Assembly (NCBI GenBank): GCA_965225945.1
Contig: CBDDBZ010000013.1
Coordinates: 1-32,701 of the forward strand
Origin: Alphaproteobacteria bacterium
GTDB lineage: Bacteria > Pseudomonadota > Alphaproteobacteria > GCA-2731375
Length of the DNA stretch: 32,701 bases
Direction: 5' to 3'
Shown here: positions 8,148-14,855 of the stretch, one piece after another
Layout: every line of letters starts with the position of its first letter
How positions within the stretch are numbered: position 1 is the stretch's first letter
The notes under the pieces: model-generated
The model's database searches: none
What the model was told of the DNA's origin: nothing
The model's input: the letters and a program-made list of their open reading frames with translations, nothing else
Made by a program: the position numbers and the translations under genes

Positions 8148-9153
8148 ATGCGCGAAGTCTATGCCGGCTTGGATGTTTCCGACAAGCAGACCCACATTTG
8201 TCTGGTGGATGGTGCCGGAGCGGTGCTCTGGCGCGGGCGCTGCGCGAGCGATCCGGACGTGATCGCCAAGACGCTGGCCAAACACACGGCGAAGCTGCCG
8301 GCGGTGCTGGCCAGGGCGGTGCTGGAGACCGGCCCGCTCTCGACCTTCCTGTTTCATGGTCTGCGTCTGCGCGCGCCATGCCAAGGGCGTGCTCTCGACC
8401 CGGCTCAACAAGACCGACCCCAACGACGCCGAGGGACTGGCCCAGCTCGCCCGCACCGGCTGGTTCAAGGCGGTGCACGTCAAGGACCCCGAGAGCCATC
8501 TCGAGCGGGCGCAGCTTCGGGTGCGCGAGCAACTGGTCAAGAGCCACCGGGACATGGTCAATCAGCTGCGTGGCCTCTTGAAGCTGTTCGGCCTCCGGCT
8601 CGGCCAGGTGACGACGCCGAACAAGCGACGCGAGCGCGTCGAAGCGTTGCTGACCCGCATGCCGGCGCTACGCCCGGCGCTGTCGCCGCTTTTGCAGACG
8701 CTCGCCGCCCTGGACGAGGAACTGGCCAAGCTGAAGAAGAGCCTAAAAGCACGCGCCGCCCGCGACCCGCTCACCCGCCGCCTGATGACGGCGCCCGGCG
8801 TCGGGCCGCATCTGGCGTTGGTCTACAGATGCACGATCGAGGATCCGGGGCGCTTCGCCCGCTCGGGCGACGTCGGCGCCTATGTCGGGTTCACGCCGAG
8901 GCGCTATCAGTCCGGCGAGGTCGATCTCGTCGGCCACATCCCGAGGGCGGGCGACGCCATGTTGCGCCATGCCCTCTACGAGGGAGCCAACGCGGTGCTC
9001 GGGGCCCTGAAACGCCCTTGCGCGCTCAGGACCTGAGGTCTCGCCTTGCAGGAACGCAAAGGCGCCAAGCGGGCTCGCGTCGCCGTCGCCAGGAAGCTCG
9101 CCGTCCTGCTGCACCGCCTGTGGCAGGACGAGACCGACTTTCGTTGGGCCTAG
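8148..9153 (+). pseudogene. IS110 DEDD recombinase/transposase, inactivated
   Basis: [47 protein letters not shown] short deletion with frameshift at ~8357 and an in-frame TGA at 9034-9036. Confidence 0.93.
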
Positions 9154-9159
9154 GCGCTG

Positions 9160-9305
9160 GCGCCGGCGGGCCCCAGGCCCGTTTCCGCCTGCTTGCCGCA
9201 GCCTGACGGGGAAGGGTGATCTCGCCTATACTGTCGCGGCATCGACCGCGTTGGGGACCTCAAAGACACCCTTCTTCCCCTGACCGCCATCCTGAGGCGC
9301 CGGCA
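9160..9305 (+). ncRNA. Candidate bridge/seek RNA region of the IS110 element
   Basis: Outer stem GGGGAAGGGTG (9208-9218) / CACCCTTCTTCCCC (9267-9280), a large internal loop, and inner stem CGCGG/CCGCG (9235-9250). Position downstream of the recombinase fits IS1111-type elements. Confidence 0.45.
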
Positions 9306-9368
9306 ACTCCAGCTGTCGTTCCTCAAAACCTATCCTGATTACGCACTTTACTCAGCCGGGTTGATGTG

Positions 9369-9383
9369 GTACAAATAGTGAAC
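9369..9383 (+). promoter_or_regulatory. Putative alphaproteobacterial LexA (SOS) box GTAC-N7-GAAC
   Basis: GTACAAATAGTGAAC lies between a TTGATG -35-like hexamer (9361) and the RBS/ATG (9411) of the outer transposase. Confidence 0.55.
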
Positions 9384-9478
9384 AAATGGCGGTTTTTCTG
9401 GAGGTTCACAATGCCACGCAACAAGGTTCCCTTTCAGAAGGGGCTCAGCGAAGCGCGTTTCCGTGGGCAATTATATAC

Positions 9479-9507
9479 TTGACGAACACGCTCTCTGACT
9501 CCATATT
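9479..9507 (+). promoter_or_regulatory. Sigma70-like promoter overlapping the left TIR
   Basis: TTGACG-N17-CATATT, followed by an AGGGAG RBS and ATG at 9528. Confidence 0.6.
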
Positions 9508-9527
9508 AGAAATCAGGGAGATAGATC

Positions 9528-10466
9528 ATGTCCATACTTTCCGCACCATTCTTTCACGATGAGCGGGCCGCCTATGCCAAGCTGGAAAGCCTGCTTTGGC
9601 CGCATGGTCCCATGTGCCCGCGCTGTGGGAGCCTGGATCGAATTACTTCGGTCAAGGGCGGACGCATTGGTCTTTACCGTTGCGGTTCTTGCAAGCGGCA
9701 GTTCAGAGTCACGGTTGGCACGATTTTCGAGTCCAGCCACGTCAAACTGCACCTGTGGTTTCAGGCTGCGCATCTAGTCTGTGCGAGCAAGAAGGGCATG
9801 AGCGCTCATCAAATCCATAGGCTTCTTGGCGTGACCTACAAGACCGCGTGGTTCATGTGCCATCGGCTCCGGGAAGCGATGCGCGAAGGGACATTCCCCG
9901 ACACGCTGGGCGGCAAAAACCGGGTCGTCGAGGCTGATGAAACCTACATCGGTGGGAAAGAAAAGAACAAGCACGCTAACAAGCGCACTCGCAAAGGGCG
10001 CGGCGCGGTCGGCAAGGAAGCCGCCTTCTCCCTTGTCGAGCGCGGCGGACGCGTGCGTTCCTTCCATGTGCCAAAGGTGAACGCCAAGACACTCAAGCCC
10101 ATCCTCAAGGCACAGATCAGCGCTAGCTCCCGTGTGATGACCGATGAGGCAGGTGTGTACGGCCAGCTCGGGCGAGACTTCGCCGAACATGAAACGGTCA
10201 ATCATAGCATCGGTGAATACGTACGCGGCGATGCCCACACCAACACCGCCGAAAACTACTTCTCCATCTTCAAGCGCGGGATCGCTGGCGTGTATCACCA
10301 CGTCAGCCAACAGCACTTGAAGCGCTATCTGGCGGAGTTCGATTTCCGGTATAATACGCGGATGGCGCTTGGCATCGACGATCAAGAGCGGACCGAACGG
10401 GCACTTCGTGGTATAGTCGGAAAGAGATTGACCTACCGGGACTCGTCACCAGTCACCGACGCGTGA
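9528..10466 (+). CDS. IS1595-family DDE transposase, intact, 312 aa
   Basis: Zn ribbon CPRCG/CGSC; VEADETYIGG; MTDE; HTNTAENYFS; HLKRYLAEFDFRYN. Confidence 0.95.
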   Translation: MSILSAPFFHDERAAYAKLESLLWPHGPMCPRCGSLDRITSVKGGRIGLYRCGSCKRQFRVTVGTIFESSHVKLHLWFQAAHLVCASKKGMSAHQIHRLLGVTYKTAWFMCHRLREAMREGTFPDTLGGKNRVVEADETYIGGKEKNKHANKRTRKGRGAVGKEAAFSLVERGGRVRSFHVPKVNAKTLKPILKAQISASSRVMTDEAGVYGQLGRDFAEHETVNHSIGEYVRGDAHTNTAENYFSIFKRGIAGVYHHVSQQHLKRYLAEFDFRYNTRMALGIDDQERTERALRGIVGKRLTYRDSSPVTDA

Positions 10467-11338
10467 AAGACGCAACCATGATCAGCCCAATCAACTTTAG
10501 CATTAGTGGTCACAACGCCGAAACTGATGCTCCGACAGTGGATGATCTGGTCAACCAAATCGGTGACTACGTTTCCATCATGCATGCGGTTGAAGAGGCG
10601 CTAGCCGATGACGGTACTAGCGAGATCGAATGGCGTGTGACCAACGCAAAGAAGAACAGTCCTCTTGAGTTAGAGATCATGCCGTTCCCGCGTCAACATG
10701 GGGTTGACATTGAACAACGCGTTCACAAGGTCAAAGAGTATACGGCGAGCGGGCTTGCACTCTTGGCCGCTAATGCAGAACGGCCCAGTTTTTTCAATGA
10801 TCCTGTCTTGGAAAAGGTTGAGCGCCTATTTCAGCGGGTTACAAACGGCCTGAGTCTGACTAAGGTTGATTATGGACCGGAGATACAGTCCACAATCGAA
10901 ATCACTCCGAGCATCGCCCGAGCGGCCGTTTCTCATATCAGCGCCGTCCGAGTGCCGAAGGAAAAGCCGTACCGTGAACTTGGGTCCGCTGAAGGCTTTT
11001 TGAAGGGGATCGATCGCGACGGCTTTGGCCGCGCGATTGTTTACGTGAAGCTGCGGCTTAATGGTGAGATAGTGAAATGTCTCGTGAGTGAGGAAGCCGA
11101 ATCTGAAGTTGAGAGACATCAAATCGGCGATGTGTGGAAAAATCGCCGCGTCAGAGTGGCCGGTACGGTCTACTACAAGAGTCTCGGGCGCATCTCCAAA
11201 ATCGATGCTGACGTTGTGCAATTTCTTCGTCGTCGTGATGAACTTCCAAGCTCTTCCGACATAATCAATAAAGATTTTACGGGCGGCCTCGCGTCCACGG
11301 AATACTTAGAAAAACTGCGGAATGGCGAACTCTCCTAA
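10463..11338 (+). CDS. Hypothetical 291-aa passenger protein, putative large partner/antitoxin of the PIN protein
   Basis: GTGA overlap with the transposase stop and AT-richer composition. Beta-rich C-terminal part (possible OB fold) and tail ASTEYLEKLRNGE. Overlaps the PIN gene by 17 nt. Start could be 10478. Confidence 0.85.
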   Translation: MKDATMISPINFSISGHNAETDAPTVDDLVNQIGDYVSIMHAVEEALADDGTSEIEWRVTNAKKNSPLELEIMPFPRQHGVDIEQRVHKVKEYTASGLALLAANAERPSFFNDPVLEKVERLFQRVTNGLSLTKVDYGPEIQSTIEITPSIARAAVSHISAVRVPKEKPYRELGSAEGFLKGIDRDGFGRAIVYVKLRLNGEIVKCLVSEEAESEVERHQIGDVWKNRRVRVAGTVYYKSLGRISKIDADVVQFLRRRDELPSSSDIINKDFTGGLASTEYLEKLRNGELS

Positions 11339-11837
11339 AAGGCTTGCATGGGATTCGTGTGCGTGGATCTCATACATTCAACAGGAAAAAGTCGTCTTAA
11401 AGGATGGCACTCCGGAGGATCGCGGGGCAATGTGCCGCCCCGTTCTGCAAGCTGCTGAGAAGGGGACTGTTGAGATCGTCGTGTCTTCAATCGCATTGGT
11501 AGAAGTAATATGTAAGAACAAGGACGTATCGATTGATGACCAGAAGGTTCGAGATTACTTCGACAATGATTACATTTTGCTCGTGAGTGCGGACAAGGAC
11601 GTATGCGACCTCGCACGTCGATTGATGTTAGCGGGCCACGCGGGACTTCGGCCCGCAGATGCAATTCATGTTGCGACCGCCTGTATCTCAAACGCCGACG
11701 AACTCCACACTTTCGATGGCAAGTTGCTAGACCTGAATTCCAGGACCGACAGGAAAGACGGAACTCATTTACGCATTAGGAAGCCCAGGTTGCCGGCCCC
11801 GCCAGCCCCATTGTTTGCAGGGATTGAAGGTGCCTAA
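11322..11837 (+). CDS. PIN-domain (VapC-like) ribonuclease, 171 aa
   Basis: Complete acidic tetrad: LAWDSC, SSIALVEV, LRPADAIHVATA, LHTFDGKL. Confidence 0.92.
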   Translation: MANSPKRLAWDSCAWISYIQQEKVVLKDGTPEDRGAMCRPVLQAAEKGTVEIVVSSIALVEVICKNKDVSIDDQKVRDYFDNDYILLVSADKDVCDLARRLMLAGHAGLRPADAIHVATACISNADELHTFDGKLLDLNSRTDRKDGTHLRIRKPRLPAPPAPLFAGIEGA

Positions 11838-12006
11838 AGCTAAGGCAAAGAAAAAGAATATCTCGCAACGTGTCCGCTTCATCGAAGCCGCCCGCGAGGC
11901 CGAATGCAGCGACGATGAGGGTGTGTTCGACCGCGCCATAAAGCATATCGCCACGGCCACGCCGAAGCCGAAAGCTAGGAAAGGTGGGACGGGCGATGAG
12001 CGCTGA
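11830..12006 (+). CDS. Small basic hypothetical protein, 58 aa
   Basis: GTG overlaps the PIN stop. MPKAKAKKKNISQRVRFIEAAREAECSDDEGVFDRAIKHIA is helical and protein-like. It overlaps the next start. Confidence 0.7.
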   Translation: MPKAKAKKKNISQRVRFIEAAREAECSDDEGVFDRAIKHIATATPKPKARKGGTGDER

Positions 12007-12213
12007 GACTGACTTAGATGATTTTTTTGAGAAACTTCTCCAAGAGGTACAAGCATCTTTAGAGAAAAAGAAACTTAGGCGGGAAAGGCCATGGACTTAC
12101 GACATTATTCGCATTCTATGGCCGTGTAAGTCTGGTCTGCATATGGATAATCTTGAGCGCGAATTATGGACCCTACGAAATCGCACCCTTCCAATGCCAA
12201 AGGAATTTAGAAA

Positions 12214-13247
12214 GGCTCAATTCGTGAAACGTATGCATTTGTGATAGAATGCCCGGAACGTCAGGAGGTTGGGTCATGGACGGCAAGGGTTTCCAGGTGT
12301 GGCTTTCGGCGGCGCGCGGGCTGACGCGCGTGCAGCGGCACGAGGCGCTCGCGGTGCTGTCGGGCCGGAGCGAAGGCGAGGCATCGAAGGCCGCGATCGA
12401 GCTTGGTGTGGACGAGGCCCGGCGCTGTCCGCACTGCGCGAGCGAAGGGGCGGTTTCGCGCGGTATGGCGCGGGGTCTGCGGCGCTACCAGTGCAAGGGC
12501 TGCGGCAGGACCTTCAACGCGCTGACCGGTACGCCGCTGTCGGGCCTGCACCACAAGGAACGCTGGCTGTCGTTCGGGGCGTCGCTGGCGGAGGGGGAGA
12601 CGGTGAAGGCCTCGGCGGCGCGCTGCGACGTGGCGGTGAGCACGGCGTTCCGCTGGCGTCACCGGTTTCTGGCGGCGGCGCGGAGCGATTCGGAGGTGCT
12701 CAAGGGGATCGTGGAAGCGGACGAGACCTACGTCCTGGAGAGCCGGAAGGGCGCGCGCGGGCTGGGACGCAAGGCACGGCGGCGGGGCGGCAAGGCGAAG
12801 AAGCGCGGCCTCTCGCGCGAGCAGGTGCCGGTTCTCATGGCGGCGGACCGGAGCGGGACGACGGTGAGCGCGGTGCTGCCCAGGGTCGACGCGGCGGCGC
12901 TCACGGCTGCTCTCGACCCGGTGGTCGCGAAGGACGCCCTGCTGGTCTCCGACGGTGGCGCGAGCTACCCCCCTTGCGCCGCCGCGCTCGGGGTGAGCCA
13001 CGAAGCACTCAACCGCTCGATGGGGGAACGGGTTCGGGGCGATCTGCATGTGCAGACGGTGAACAGCCGCCACAGCCGCCACAGCCGGTTGAAGGACTTC
13101 CTGCGTCCCCGCCGCGGCATCGCCACCCGCTATCTCGACAACTACCTGAGCTGGTTCCACCTCGTTGGCCTCGCCCCCGGCGCCAATGACCGGGCCTGCC
13201 TCGCCGCCGCCGTAACAAGGTGACGCATACAATTCACGAATTGAGCC
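12214..13247 (+). mobile_element. Inner IS1595-family element (ISPna2-like), 1034 bp
   Basis: TIRs GGCTCAATTCGTGAAACGTATGC / GGCTCAATTCGTGAATTGTATGC (21/23). 8-bp TSD TTTAGAAA at 12206-12213 and 13248-13255. Confidence 0.95.
12249..13223 (+). CDS. IS1595 transposase (DD-N type)
   Basis: CPHC/CKGC, VEADETY, LVSDG, HVQTVNS, GIATRYLDNYLSWF. The start is more likely ATG 12276, after AGGAGG. Confidence 0.93.
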   Translation: MPGTSGGWVMDGKGFQVWLSAARGLTRVQRHEALAVLSGRSEGEASKAAIELGVDEARRCPHCASEGAVSRGMARGLRRYQCKGCGRTFNALTGTPLSGLHHKERWLSFGASLAEGETVKASAARCDVAVSTAFRWRHRFLAAARSDSEVLKGIVEADETYVLESRKGARGLGRKARRRGGKAKKRGLSREQVPVLMAADRSGTTVSAVLPRVDAAALTAALDPVVAKDALLVSDGGASYPPCAAALGVSHEALNRSMGERVRGDLHVQTVNSRHSRHSRLKDFLRPRRGIATRYLDNYLSWFHLVGLAPGANDRACLAAAVTR

Positions 13248-14035
13248 TTTAGAAAAACGGTACAAAGCACATTGAATCACCATACTTCTCAATCAAAGGT
13301 TTTTAAAAATAAGCGCCGCTCCGTAGACGACGACTTATTTTACTCACCGAGGGGAAAAGGGTCTGGCACCTGGGCTGTCCATCATGACCGTGTGATTGCG
13401 TGGCTGGAAAAGAAACGACTTCGCCCGGCCTAGGTGTGTTTGTTAAGTATACAATTGCCTTTCCGTGAGTTGTACGGTAGCGAGGAGCAGTGTCGCGAGG
13501 CGCTGTTCCGCTGGCGCTGGCCGGAGGGGTTCTCCTGCCCGCGATGCGGCGCCACGCGCCATTGCGAGATCGCCGGGCGAAAACTTTACCAATGCGCCGC
13601 CTGCCGTCATCAAGTCTCGCTGACCGCCGGCACGCTCTTCCACGCGACCAAGCTGGCGCTGACGCTGTGGTTCTCGGCGATCTATCACATGACCCAATCG
13701 AAGAAGGGGATCTCCTCCATCGAACTCGGCCGCCGGCTCGGCGTCACCCAGACCACGGCCTGGAAGATCAAGCAGAAACTGATGCAGGCCATGCTCGAGC
13801 GCGACGCCAAATTGCCGCTCACCGGGCGGGTGGAGATGGACGATGCCTACCTCGGCGGCCGGCGTTCCGGGGCCAAGCGCGGCCGGGGCGCGCCGGGCAA
13901 GACGCCATTCGTCGCCGCCGTCCAGACCACGGCGGAGGGCCAGCCCGTGCGCATCAAGCTCCGCCGCGTCAAGGGCTTCCGCAAGAGCGAGATCGCCAAG
14001 ATGGCCAAGCGCGACCTGAGCCCCGGTGCGACGGT

Positions 14036-14855
14036 TGACGGCGTCGAAGCCGATCGCGCCGAGCTTCAGCGCATCGCCGATCGCCGCCTCGACCTCGGCG
14101 AGGCGGAAGCTCTCCAGGAGACGCAGGACCTGGACGTACTCCCGCTTGCCGGCCTTGCCCATGCGCGCCTCCATCAGACGGCGCAGCGTGGCGAAGGCCT
14201 CCGGCAGGTCCCAGCCCGCCAGCGGCGCGGCCTGGTCAAGCGCACCGATCTTCCGCTCGATCAGCGGCAGGTAGTGCAGCGGATCGAAGATCAGGTCCTC
14301 GCGCTCGCAGGACCGCCGATGACGGGCGATCACCTCGGCGCCGCAGCCGATGACCACTTGGTCGACGTAACCCCGGATGACAACCTCGCGATAGCCGTAG
14401 GCCACCGGCACCGAGTAGTCGTTGTCGCGGTAGCGGACCAGCGACAGCGAGCTCACGCGTCCAGGGCGCTTGTCGCAGGCATCCTATGGAGCCGGGGGTA
14501 GCGCTAGCAGAGCTTCGCGATCCCGTGCGAGGCGCTCGCCGATCGTCTCCCCGTGGCCCCGCAGCCGTGCGGCCTGGCGCCGGCGGCACTGTCCCGCGAG
14601 ATCATCGTTCAGCGCCTCGATGCTCTCAACCCGCGGAACCGGCACGAGGAAGTTCCGCCGGATGAAGCCGACCAACCCCTCGACCTTGCCCTTGTCGTTG
14701 CCCTTGCCCGGCCGGCCGAACCTGTCCTCGAACAGATAGTGAGATTGCAGCTCCGTGAAGACGCGCGTTCGCTGCCGCTTTCCATCGCCCAGGATGCGGG
14801 CAACCGCCAGCTTGGTGTTGTCGTACAGGATGGAGCGGGGGACGCCGCCGAAGAG
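14036..14855 (-). pseudogene. istA: IS21-family IstA transposase internal fragment
   Basis: FGGVPRSILYDN, GNDKGKVEGLV, SLVRYRDNDYSVP, FDPLHYLPLIERKIGALDQA. In-frame TAG at 14484-14486. Both ends missing. Confidence 0.9.

Follow-up and report, generated by a model that had tools for sequence, protein, structure and literature searches.

What would an insertion sequence (IS) gain from carrying a nuclease together with a large protein that bears no family name? The question is raised by contig CBDDBZ010000013.1 of an Alphaproteobacteria bacterium (GenBank assembly GCA_965225945.1), whose whole stretch of 32,701 nucleotides (nt) is the window analysed here. Inside an IS1595-family element on its forward strand, a PIN nuclease gene (11322-11837) overlaps the end of an upstream open reading frame (ORF; 10463-11338) that we call A, and the initial annotation of this DNA took the two for a candidate undescribed sensor-antitoxin and toxin module acting in defence or addiction. 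We find that the two genes are a conserved pair, that their carrier has left a complete transposition footprint, and that the pair outlives the transposase. On balance we think that A and PIN are probably a VapBC-like type II toxin-antitoxin (TA) pair, translationally coupled and with an atypical antitoxin, that serves as an addiction or stabilization module.

The gene pair and its predicted complex

The pair and the parts of A are:

10478-11338, + strand: gene A, PIN partner and putative antitoxin, 286 amino acids (aa) from ATG 10478; the ORF also opens at GTG 10463 (291 aa)
10478-10957, + strand: predicted N-domain of A, residues 1-160, alpha+beta (AlphaFold2 (AF2) model)
10961-11242, + strand: predicted OB fold of A, residues about 162-255 (AF2 model, Foldseek, VIA)
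11243-11335, + strand: conserved tail of A, residues 256-286 (alignment, AF2 model)
11322-11837, + strand: PIN (VapC-type) nuclease, 171 aa (ORF list, Pfam)

Both ORFs are intact and co-oriented with the transposase gene at 9528-10466, and the ORF list of the window confirms the open frames and the 17-nt overlap between them that had been reported initially. Because relatives of A, mostly 285-286 aa long, begin at the sixth residue of the 291-aa frame, ATG 10478, which lies 11 nt past the transposase stop, is the likelier start. The pair is also richer in AT than its flanks, as had been noticed, with a GC content of 0.51-0.52 at 10501-11500; the values are 0.56-0.58 in the transposase gene and 0.60-0.74 in most of the remaining window.

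We collected 86 loci (6 from genomes and 80 from metagenomes), scored them with hidden Markov models of A and PIN, and limited the pair count to the 74 loci with at least 200 nt after A. PIN lies directly downstream of A in 73 of these 74 (54 whole, 7 cut by a contig end, 7 in two frames and 5 truncated), as well as in all five further genome matches from the class and on plasmid pMOC1. Given this recurrence, the adjacency of A and PIN is not a product of chance, and the pairing supposed at the outset holds nearly everywhere. A stop-start overlap is present in all 73 measured loci (17 nt in 57, 14 in 10, 11 in 3, 8 in 2 and 4 in 1), and the pairwise identities of A and PIN correlate (rho 0.65 over 66 non-independent pairs). 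Both proteins are under purifying selection: in a transposase-free clade the median ratio of nonsynonymous to synonymous substitution rates (dN/dS) stands at 0.107 for A (31 of 45 pairs usable) and 0.083 for PIN (25 of 45), and in the clade of the window at 0.18 and 0.14, respectively.

PIN matches PF01850 in Pfam (E 1.3e-8; 35.9 bits against a cut-off of 23.6) and, as the initial annotation had read from its translation, keeps all four catalytic acidic residues; across a 38-sequence alignment D11, D113 and D132 are invariant and E61 is present in at least 90%. A PDB sequence search with PIN returned chance-level matches only (E at least 0.07).

Its partner belongs to a large protein family without a name. 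A has no match in Pfam or NCBIfam (E<=0.1) or in PADLOC (E<=1), and its best E among PDB sequences is 1.6, which is no match. That it is devoid of a recognizable AbrB, ribbon-helix-helix (RHH) or Phd domain was correctly noted: Pfam and NCBIfam are silent on A itself, and 126 family members scanned against Pfam gave two single-member matches only, neither of them an antitoxin-type DNA-binding domain. A word-indexed search identified 310 relatives, and all those named in their source are called 'hypothetical protein'. A profile of 44 members, searched against 1.84 billion representatives at 50% clustering, found 1506 cluster representatives at E<=0.001, 695 at E<=1e-10 and 131 at E<=1e-30; lengths among the 150 best matches run from 98 to 404 aa and are mostly about 270-300 aa. 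The ESM Atlas clusters nearest to A are all 'hypothetical protein' and share no common Pfam family, and a PHROGs search gave marginal matches only (E 0.06 and 0.0065). The distribution within the class is patchy, with A in 6 of 401 sampled genomes, the window's own included, in a single copy each.

The AF2 model of A (mean predicted local distance difference test (pLDDT) 85.5) has three parts. The N-domain, modelled alone from 126 sequences, reaches a pLDDT of 95.3 and a predicted template-modelling score (pTM) of 0.90. Against the PDB its best VIA match has Z 5.7 and a root-mean-square deviation (rmsd) of 3.5 over 93 residues, on generic ferredoxin-like sandwiches, a Z within the range that VIA rates as common, and its best Foldseek match has an E of 0.04; as modelled, the domain appears to be without a clear solved relative, which by itself does not imply a new fold. 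An OB fold in the body of A, suspected from the translation, is recovered in the model, where Foldseek matches the region to SSB and to the N-domain of LysRS (E about 5e-4), and VIA to 4dam_A (Z 9.3, rmsd 3.7 over 87 residues) followed by SSB, PriB, RPA, MCM and AspRS. In addition, the Pfam tRNA_anti-codon model matches 1 of the 126 family members (E 1.9e-4). The tail is modelled with lower confidence as two short helices, and its sequence is strongly conserved (F267, T268, G270, S273, Y276, R281 and G283 each at 90% or above). The strings that the initial annotation had quoted for the tail and the OB region are both found in the translation of A.

Modelling of the A-PIN complex with alignments for both chains yielded, in three runs, interaction prediction scores from aligned errors (ipSAE) of 0.83, 0.83 and 0.84, against 0.00 for the best of three controls; the runs share at least 73% of their contacts, and the partner pLDDT is at least 84. 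At the ipSAE mark applied, 58 of 80 solved complexes pass against 2 of 110 mismatched pairs, counts that hold only roughly because our own alignments were used. On the A side the predicted interface comprises residues 250-286 together with OB residues 162-172, 193-194, 224 and 233-237, and on the PIN side residues 12-24, 61, 63-69, 110, 112 and 131-133. The predicted contacts fall beside D11, on E61, beside D113 and on D132, so that all four catalytic residues would be adjoined, a geometry which, as modelled, is the inhibitory one of VapB on VapC. The docking of the tail over the PIN active site, proposed earlier from its likeness to the helices that neutralize VapC, is therefore what the model predicts, and as a prediction it supports binding of A to PIN.

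A proline-rich C-terminal extension of PIN (residues ~150-171, window 11769-11834; consensus roughly IRKP-VPAPPAPLL) is conserved, with P155 invariant and P163 and L164 at least 90% conserved in the 38-sequence alignment, and plays no part in the predicted interface with A. Four PIN relatives that are 96-98% identical (P0276, P0278, P0279 and P0282) have been called as 135 aa from an internal Met37, a start that would remove the first catalytic Asp; these calls look like gene-calling errors, since the N-terminal 36 residues are conserved across the family. On the side of A, a distant relative (L111; G258, C1:1900269-1900586 region) has a 328-aa frame that retains the OB fold and tail only (profile positions 149-261). 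Its N-terminal part is different and without a Pfam family, and a PIN gene still follows, which suggests that the PIN-binding module and the N-domain of A are exchangeable. A second relative, P0161, joins the N-domain to a truncated short-chain dehydrogenase; it was considered as a domain-fusion clue and set aside, as it looks like a deletion artefact. Other A relatives of odd length have no match to a Pfam family.

The carrier element and its relatives

The features of the element outside the pair are:

9458-9465, unstranded: left copy of the 8-base-pair (bp) target-site duplication, TTTCCGTG, identical to 13460-13467
9466-9489, + strand: left inverted repeat (IRL) of the transporter IS, 24 nt, pairing with 13436-13459
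9479-9507, + strand: promoter-like site, TTGACG-17-CATATT, with its -35 hexamer within the conserved IRL core
9528-10466, + strand: IS1595-family transposase, 312 aa, intact (Pfam, NCBIfam)
11830-12006, + strand: small lysine-rich ORF, 58 aa from GTG 11830 or 63 aa from TTG 11815
11996-12205, + strand: fourth cargo ORF, 5' part, cut by the nested IS (ORF list; no Pfam family)
12214-13247, + strand: nested second IS1595-family IS, with transposase ORF 12249-13223 (inverted repeat, Pfam)
13256-13433, + strand: fourth cargo ORF, 3' part (no Pfam family)
13436-13459, - strand: right inverted repeat (IRR) of the transporter IS, pairing with 9466-9489
13460-13467, unstranded: right copy of the target-site duplication, TTTCCGTG, a perfect 8-bp repeat

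These features constitute the complete transposition footprint of an IS1595-family transporter IS. The transposase matches DDE_Tnp_IS1595 (2.7e-43) and Zn_ribbon_IS1595 (6.2e-12) in Pfam and transpos_IS1595 (4.1e-64) in NCBIfam, and the alignment of IRL with IRR scores 33 against 21.8+-2.5 for shuffled sequences (maximum 27). The element occupies 9466-13459, measures 3994 bp with the nested IS included and 2.95 kb without it, and is inserted in another, multi-copy IS1595-family IS (the host IS), whose left 132 nt (9334-9465) occur in more than 30 copies in the genome at 83-95% identity. In all seven uninterrupted host-IS sister copies examined the empty site is seen directly, with TTTCCGTG present once and the flanks overlapping by exactly 8 bp, and one RNA-library contig crosses the empty site (at 9465). 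Inverted repeats, duplication and empty site thus bear out the earlier statement that the pair is carried by an IS with intact ends. The end that had been assigned to the module, 11837, proved too short, for the element runs on to 13459; a right end just after PIN was also tried and rejected, as 9300-9530 compared with 11800-12260 scores 17, with shuffles at 18.1+-2.3, and the true IRR is at 13436-13459.

The nested IS is itself flanked by an 8-bp duplication, TTTAGAAA, at 12206-12213 and 13248-13255, and when it is removed together with one repeat copy the two halves of the fourth cargo ORF, read by eye, share one frame. The genes are closely packed: 11 nt separate the transposase from A (a 4-nt overlap if A starts at its GTG), PIN and the small ORF overlap by 8 nt, and the small and fourth ORFs overlap by 11 nt, such that each of the four downstream genes in the window starts either inside the preceding gene or at most 11 nt beyond its end. 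The promoter-like site is the only one of its kind in 9300-13600; as shuffled sequences contain 1.7 on average, it rests on its position alone. We found no close copies of the transporter IS in its own genome or in 32 other genomes of the family, where only distant pieces of IS1595 transposases were seen.

The surroundings are damaged, as had been described: the second IS splits the downstream gene, and frameshifted pieces that we take, by eye from the ORF list, to be IS110-like and IS21-like lie in the outer flanks. One IS110-like transposase frame at 8148-9206 is split over two frames (8148-9206 and 8356-9036) and, judged by eye, is one more sign that the element sits in an IS graveyard. The host-IS transposase ORF (listed as 13434-14501; host-IS part 13460 to about 14037) matches IS1595 in its first ~200 residues only. 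Beyond these the opposite strand presumably encodes an IS21-type IstA-like protein, again recognized by eye.

Does the association with such an element recur elsewhere? A transposase lies directly upstream of A in 29 of the 75 classifiable loci (13 full, 6 cut by a contig end and 10 3' remnants), with 48-75% identity to that of the window; the other 46 have at least 300 nt upstream and no transposase, and 11 of the 86 loci could not be classified. The IRL core TATACTTGACRAAC is found upstream of the transposase in 10 of the 13 full-transposase loci, and the same type of inverted repeat delimits elements of 3137-3366 bp in L089, L056/L057 and L104. In 18 loci PIN is followed by a small lysine-rich ORF (about 55-63 aa, with a common central motif). 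Where the sequence leaves room for it, all 12 full-transposase loci have this ORF and 30 of 31 transposase-free loci lack it; it thus accompanies the transposase rather than the A-PIN pair. The motif reads roughly QRxRF-E-AREL-CD-DE ... F ... KL-KIAK-KP and also occurs at L089:6332-6520, L056:2829-3011 and L105:3122-3310. The small ORF matches no Pfam family and had two relatives only by word-indexed search; it may encode an IS accessory or DNA-binding protein. The same gene order is present in RefSeq on plasmid pMOC1 of Methylobacterium oryzae, where an IS1595 family transposase is followed by a 288-aa hypothetical protein 25% identical to A, a PIN homologue named 'type II toxin-antitoxin system VapC family toxin' and a 62-aa protein bearing the small-ORF motif. 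What had been proposed as a two-gene module therefore stands as a conserved A-PIN pair, set in a conserved unit of four genes (transposase, A, PIN and small ORF), an order that recurs in 13 loci besides the window and the plasmid. Elements of this lineage consist of an IRL with its promoter-like site, the four genes, a variable further gene and an IRR, bounded by an 8-bp duplication.

The 46 transposase-free loci show that the pair survives loss of the transposase under purifying selection. On a tree of A (77 rows, quick method, midpoint root) transposase-linked and transposase-free loci are interleaved, well-supported branches forcing at least 9-10 changes of state, and the identities of transposase and A co-vary weakly (rho 0.44). 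The simplest reading of the interleaving and the visible remnants is that the IS has decayed repeatedly around an A-PIN pair that survived. Neighbouring genes were tested in five transposase-free genome loci; of the ten, seven are metabolic (ThiC twice, SnoaL, GFA, NUDIX, a short-chain dehydrogenase and a Cys/Met pyridoxal-phosphate (PLP) enzyme), one encodes a BrnA antitoxin and two have no family.

A probable addiction role weighed against others

If A and PIN act as the TA pair that we favour, PIN would be a VapC-type RNase, and A would bind it through its last ~35 residues and one face of the OB fold, covering the catalytic pocket, so that PIN would stay silent as long as A is made. The well-conserved N-domain and the OB fold would be left free for nucleic acid, which they probably bind for the sake of autoregulation or as a trigger. 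As the IS decays, transposase and small ORF would be lost and A-PIN retained, and the pair would thereby promote the maintenance of the element and its carrier DNA.

Several observations weigh against this account. PIN toxicity, its neutralization by A and the addiction effect are steps that we infer. The complex score may in part reflect the model's memory of solved VapBC complexes. A carries no AbrB, RHH, Phd or helix-turn-helix (HTH) domain recognizable by Pfam or NCBIfam. Its first ~250 residues are strongly constrained, which neutralization by a tail alone does not need; for this reason A likely does more than inhibit, and probably has a function beyond inhibition. The pair shares one operon with the transposase, leaving room for a role in transposition. 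One locus of the 74, the metagenome contig L053, has A but no PIN within 2.9 kb downstream. PIN is disrupted beside an intact A in 12 of the 66 loci free of a contig-end limit, a pattern that resembles toxin decay; we give it little weight, as the 12 may include assembly errors and the asymmetry is biased by the picking of loci through their match to A. Two studies have metatranscriptome libraries whose short contigs match parts of A and PIN with 0-2 mismatches; this hints weakly at transcription, and DNA carry-over is possible.

A bolder idea is that the IS1595 lineage has, built into the element, a private nucleic-acid-sensing TA module in which the OB fold and N-domain would detect a cue, for example that the element has been lost or excised, an intermediate of transposition or nucleic acid from an invading phage, and release PIN. 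We entertain this tentatively and give it clearly limited credence.

In the abortive-infection role suggested by the initial annotation, the N-domain or OB fold would sense a phage protein or nucleic acid and free PIN, the IS merely spreading the pair. It shares the neutralization mechanism with the addiction role and differs in trigger and benefit. The ~250 conserved residues of A beyond the tail, with an OB fold of the nucleic-acid-binding type, would suit this role, as would the patchy distribution (6 of 401 genomes), and the best matches of the N-domain in BFVD are uncharacterized phage proteins (top E 6.7e-5, TM-score normalized by query (TMq) 0.65). A protein with the DUF6575 domain also matches the N-domain structurally (BFVD, E 0.011), and DUF6575 is among the domains of validated E. 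coli defence systems in the part of that source available (PMC9519451). However, sequence tests of A as a DUF6575 protein were negative: the Pfam model (PF20215) matches none of the 126 members at E<=0.01, and hhalign against one DUF6575 protein gave 0.4%, which leaves the structural match and an Atlas score of 0.78 as a lead. A search for DUF6575 in 301 genomes of the class found no match, and carries little weight as it was also empty in control genomes. Further evidence speaks against defence. Neither A nor PIN matches PADLOC-DB 2.0 (E<=1), and among the 126 members there are four unrelated marginal PADLOC matches of 1/126 each (E 5e-4 to 9e-3). No match was found in 50,697 phage records, and none of the ten neighbours in the five transposase-free loci is a defence gene, one being the BrnA antitoxin, although this sample is small for a measure of enrichment.

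Of the original proposal, the pair, the OB fold, the predicted docking of the tail and the carriage by an IS have thus held, and the system has no match in PADLOC, Pfam or NCBIfam; sensing and abortive infection have so far found no support in PADLOC, in the phage records or beside the five loci. A selfish role in addiction or stabilization of the IS fits the data at least as well as sensing with abortive infection, and we think an anti-phage function unlikely.

The operon shared with the transposase raises another alternative, that A and PIN are accessory factors of the IS, A for instance binding the IS ends or single-stranded intermediates through its OB fold and PIN processing DNA or trimming transposase mRNA, by which transposition would be tuned. 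The tight packing and the promoter-like site in the IRL of the window would agree with it, as would a transposase-A-PIN-small ORF order kept down to 25% identity of A and the weak co-variation of transposase and A (rho 0.44). Yet 46 of the 75 classifiable loci hold A and PIN without an adjoining transposase, these transposase-free pairs are under purifying selection and often lie between housekeeping genes, it is the small ORF that goes with the transposase (30 of 31 transposase-free loci are without it), and PIN matches a VapC-type Pfam model, not FEN-like families. Because the pair persists without the transposase, we regard a transposition role as improbable.

Least probable of all, to our minds, is that A is a positive subunit whose OB fold brings RNA or DNA to PIN in a two-subunit housekeeping or stress nuclease: OB folds are found together with nucleases in numerous systems, A is a large protein under strong conservation and mutual binding is predicted, but the predicted seat of the tail on PIN residues 12-14, 61, 110, 112 and 131-133 is an inhibitory geometry, and a patchy, IS-borne, single-copy distribution ill suits a housekeeping enzyme.

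Relation to known systems and implications

The A-PIN pair resembles VapBC in its PIN toxin with four acidic residues, in the overlapping upstream partner gene, in the predicted C-terminal cover of the active site and in its mobile, patchy distribution. Ordinary VapB antitoxins are roughly 70-100 aa long, whereas A has about 285 aa, lacks AbrB, RHH, Phd and HTH domains, has a predicted alpha+beta domain and OB fold instead, places the OB fold as well in the predicted interface and has no annotation in Pfam or NCBIfam.

Transporter IS (tIS) of the IS1595 family, such as ISNha5, were reportedly described by Siguier, Gagnevin and Chandler in 2009. The present element is like them in its zinc-ribbon IS1595-type transposase, terminal inverted repeats, 8-bp duplication and passengers inside the ends. 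The passengers of ISNha5 are transcription regulators in the part of the source available (PMC11891212), and the PIN pair differs from these cited passengers. In the literature searched, of which some sources were available in part, there is no description of a PIN pair or PIN cargo in IS1595 elements, although a named IS with such cargo may exist.

TA cargo is familiar from other elements. TA pairs lie beside the transposition genes of Tn3-family transposons and have been proposed to serve the element, and PIN toxins are listed among the passenger toxins, as given in the accessible portion of one study (Lima-Mendez et al. 2020, PMC7157771). The likeness to those passengers, as far as that portion describes them, is a TA-like pair next to the transposition genes of the element; the difference is that the carrier here is a DDE IS of the IS1595 family, with the pair downstream of the transposase in the same operon and a putative antitoxin of a new type. 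Larger, non-canonical partner sets of VapC-like PIN toxins are also known from three-component PIN systems, whose partners are an HTH protein and a DUF955 protease (Matelska et al. 2017, PMC5499597). The A-PIN pair has neither HTH nor DUF955, the 'three-component' passages of that paper name no OB-fold partner, and the terms 'OB-fold' and 'transposase' do not occur in its main text. IS1595-family transporter IS are already known, as are VapBC systems and transposons with TA cargo; what seems to be new is the partner family and its architecture, the predicted role of an OB fold in the interface and the fixed association of the pair and small ORF with one IS lineage.

These findings give a large nameless protein family a testable role, in which a protein of novel domain composition is the partner of a PIN toxin. 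They also supply a rule for annotation, by which a transporter IS, or what remains of one, can be recognized from a hypothetical protein of ~285 aa that overlaps a PIN gene and lies downstream of an IS1595 transposase. If the sensing-module idea were true, A would represent a new antitoxin architecture, with the OB fold engaged in both sensing and toxin clamping, and the element would be the first IS, as opposed to a Tn3-type transposon or plasmid, to enforce its own retention or to pay its host with immunity. A TA-like pair has remained the fixed cargo of a whole lineage of simple IS across deep divergence, with identities of A as low as 25%, and the pair outlasts the transposase; the use of TA modules to transposable elements thereby becomes testable in an element of 3 kb.

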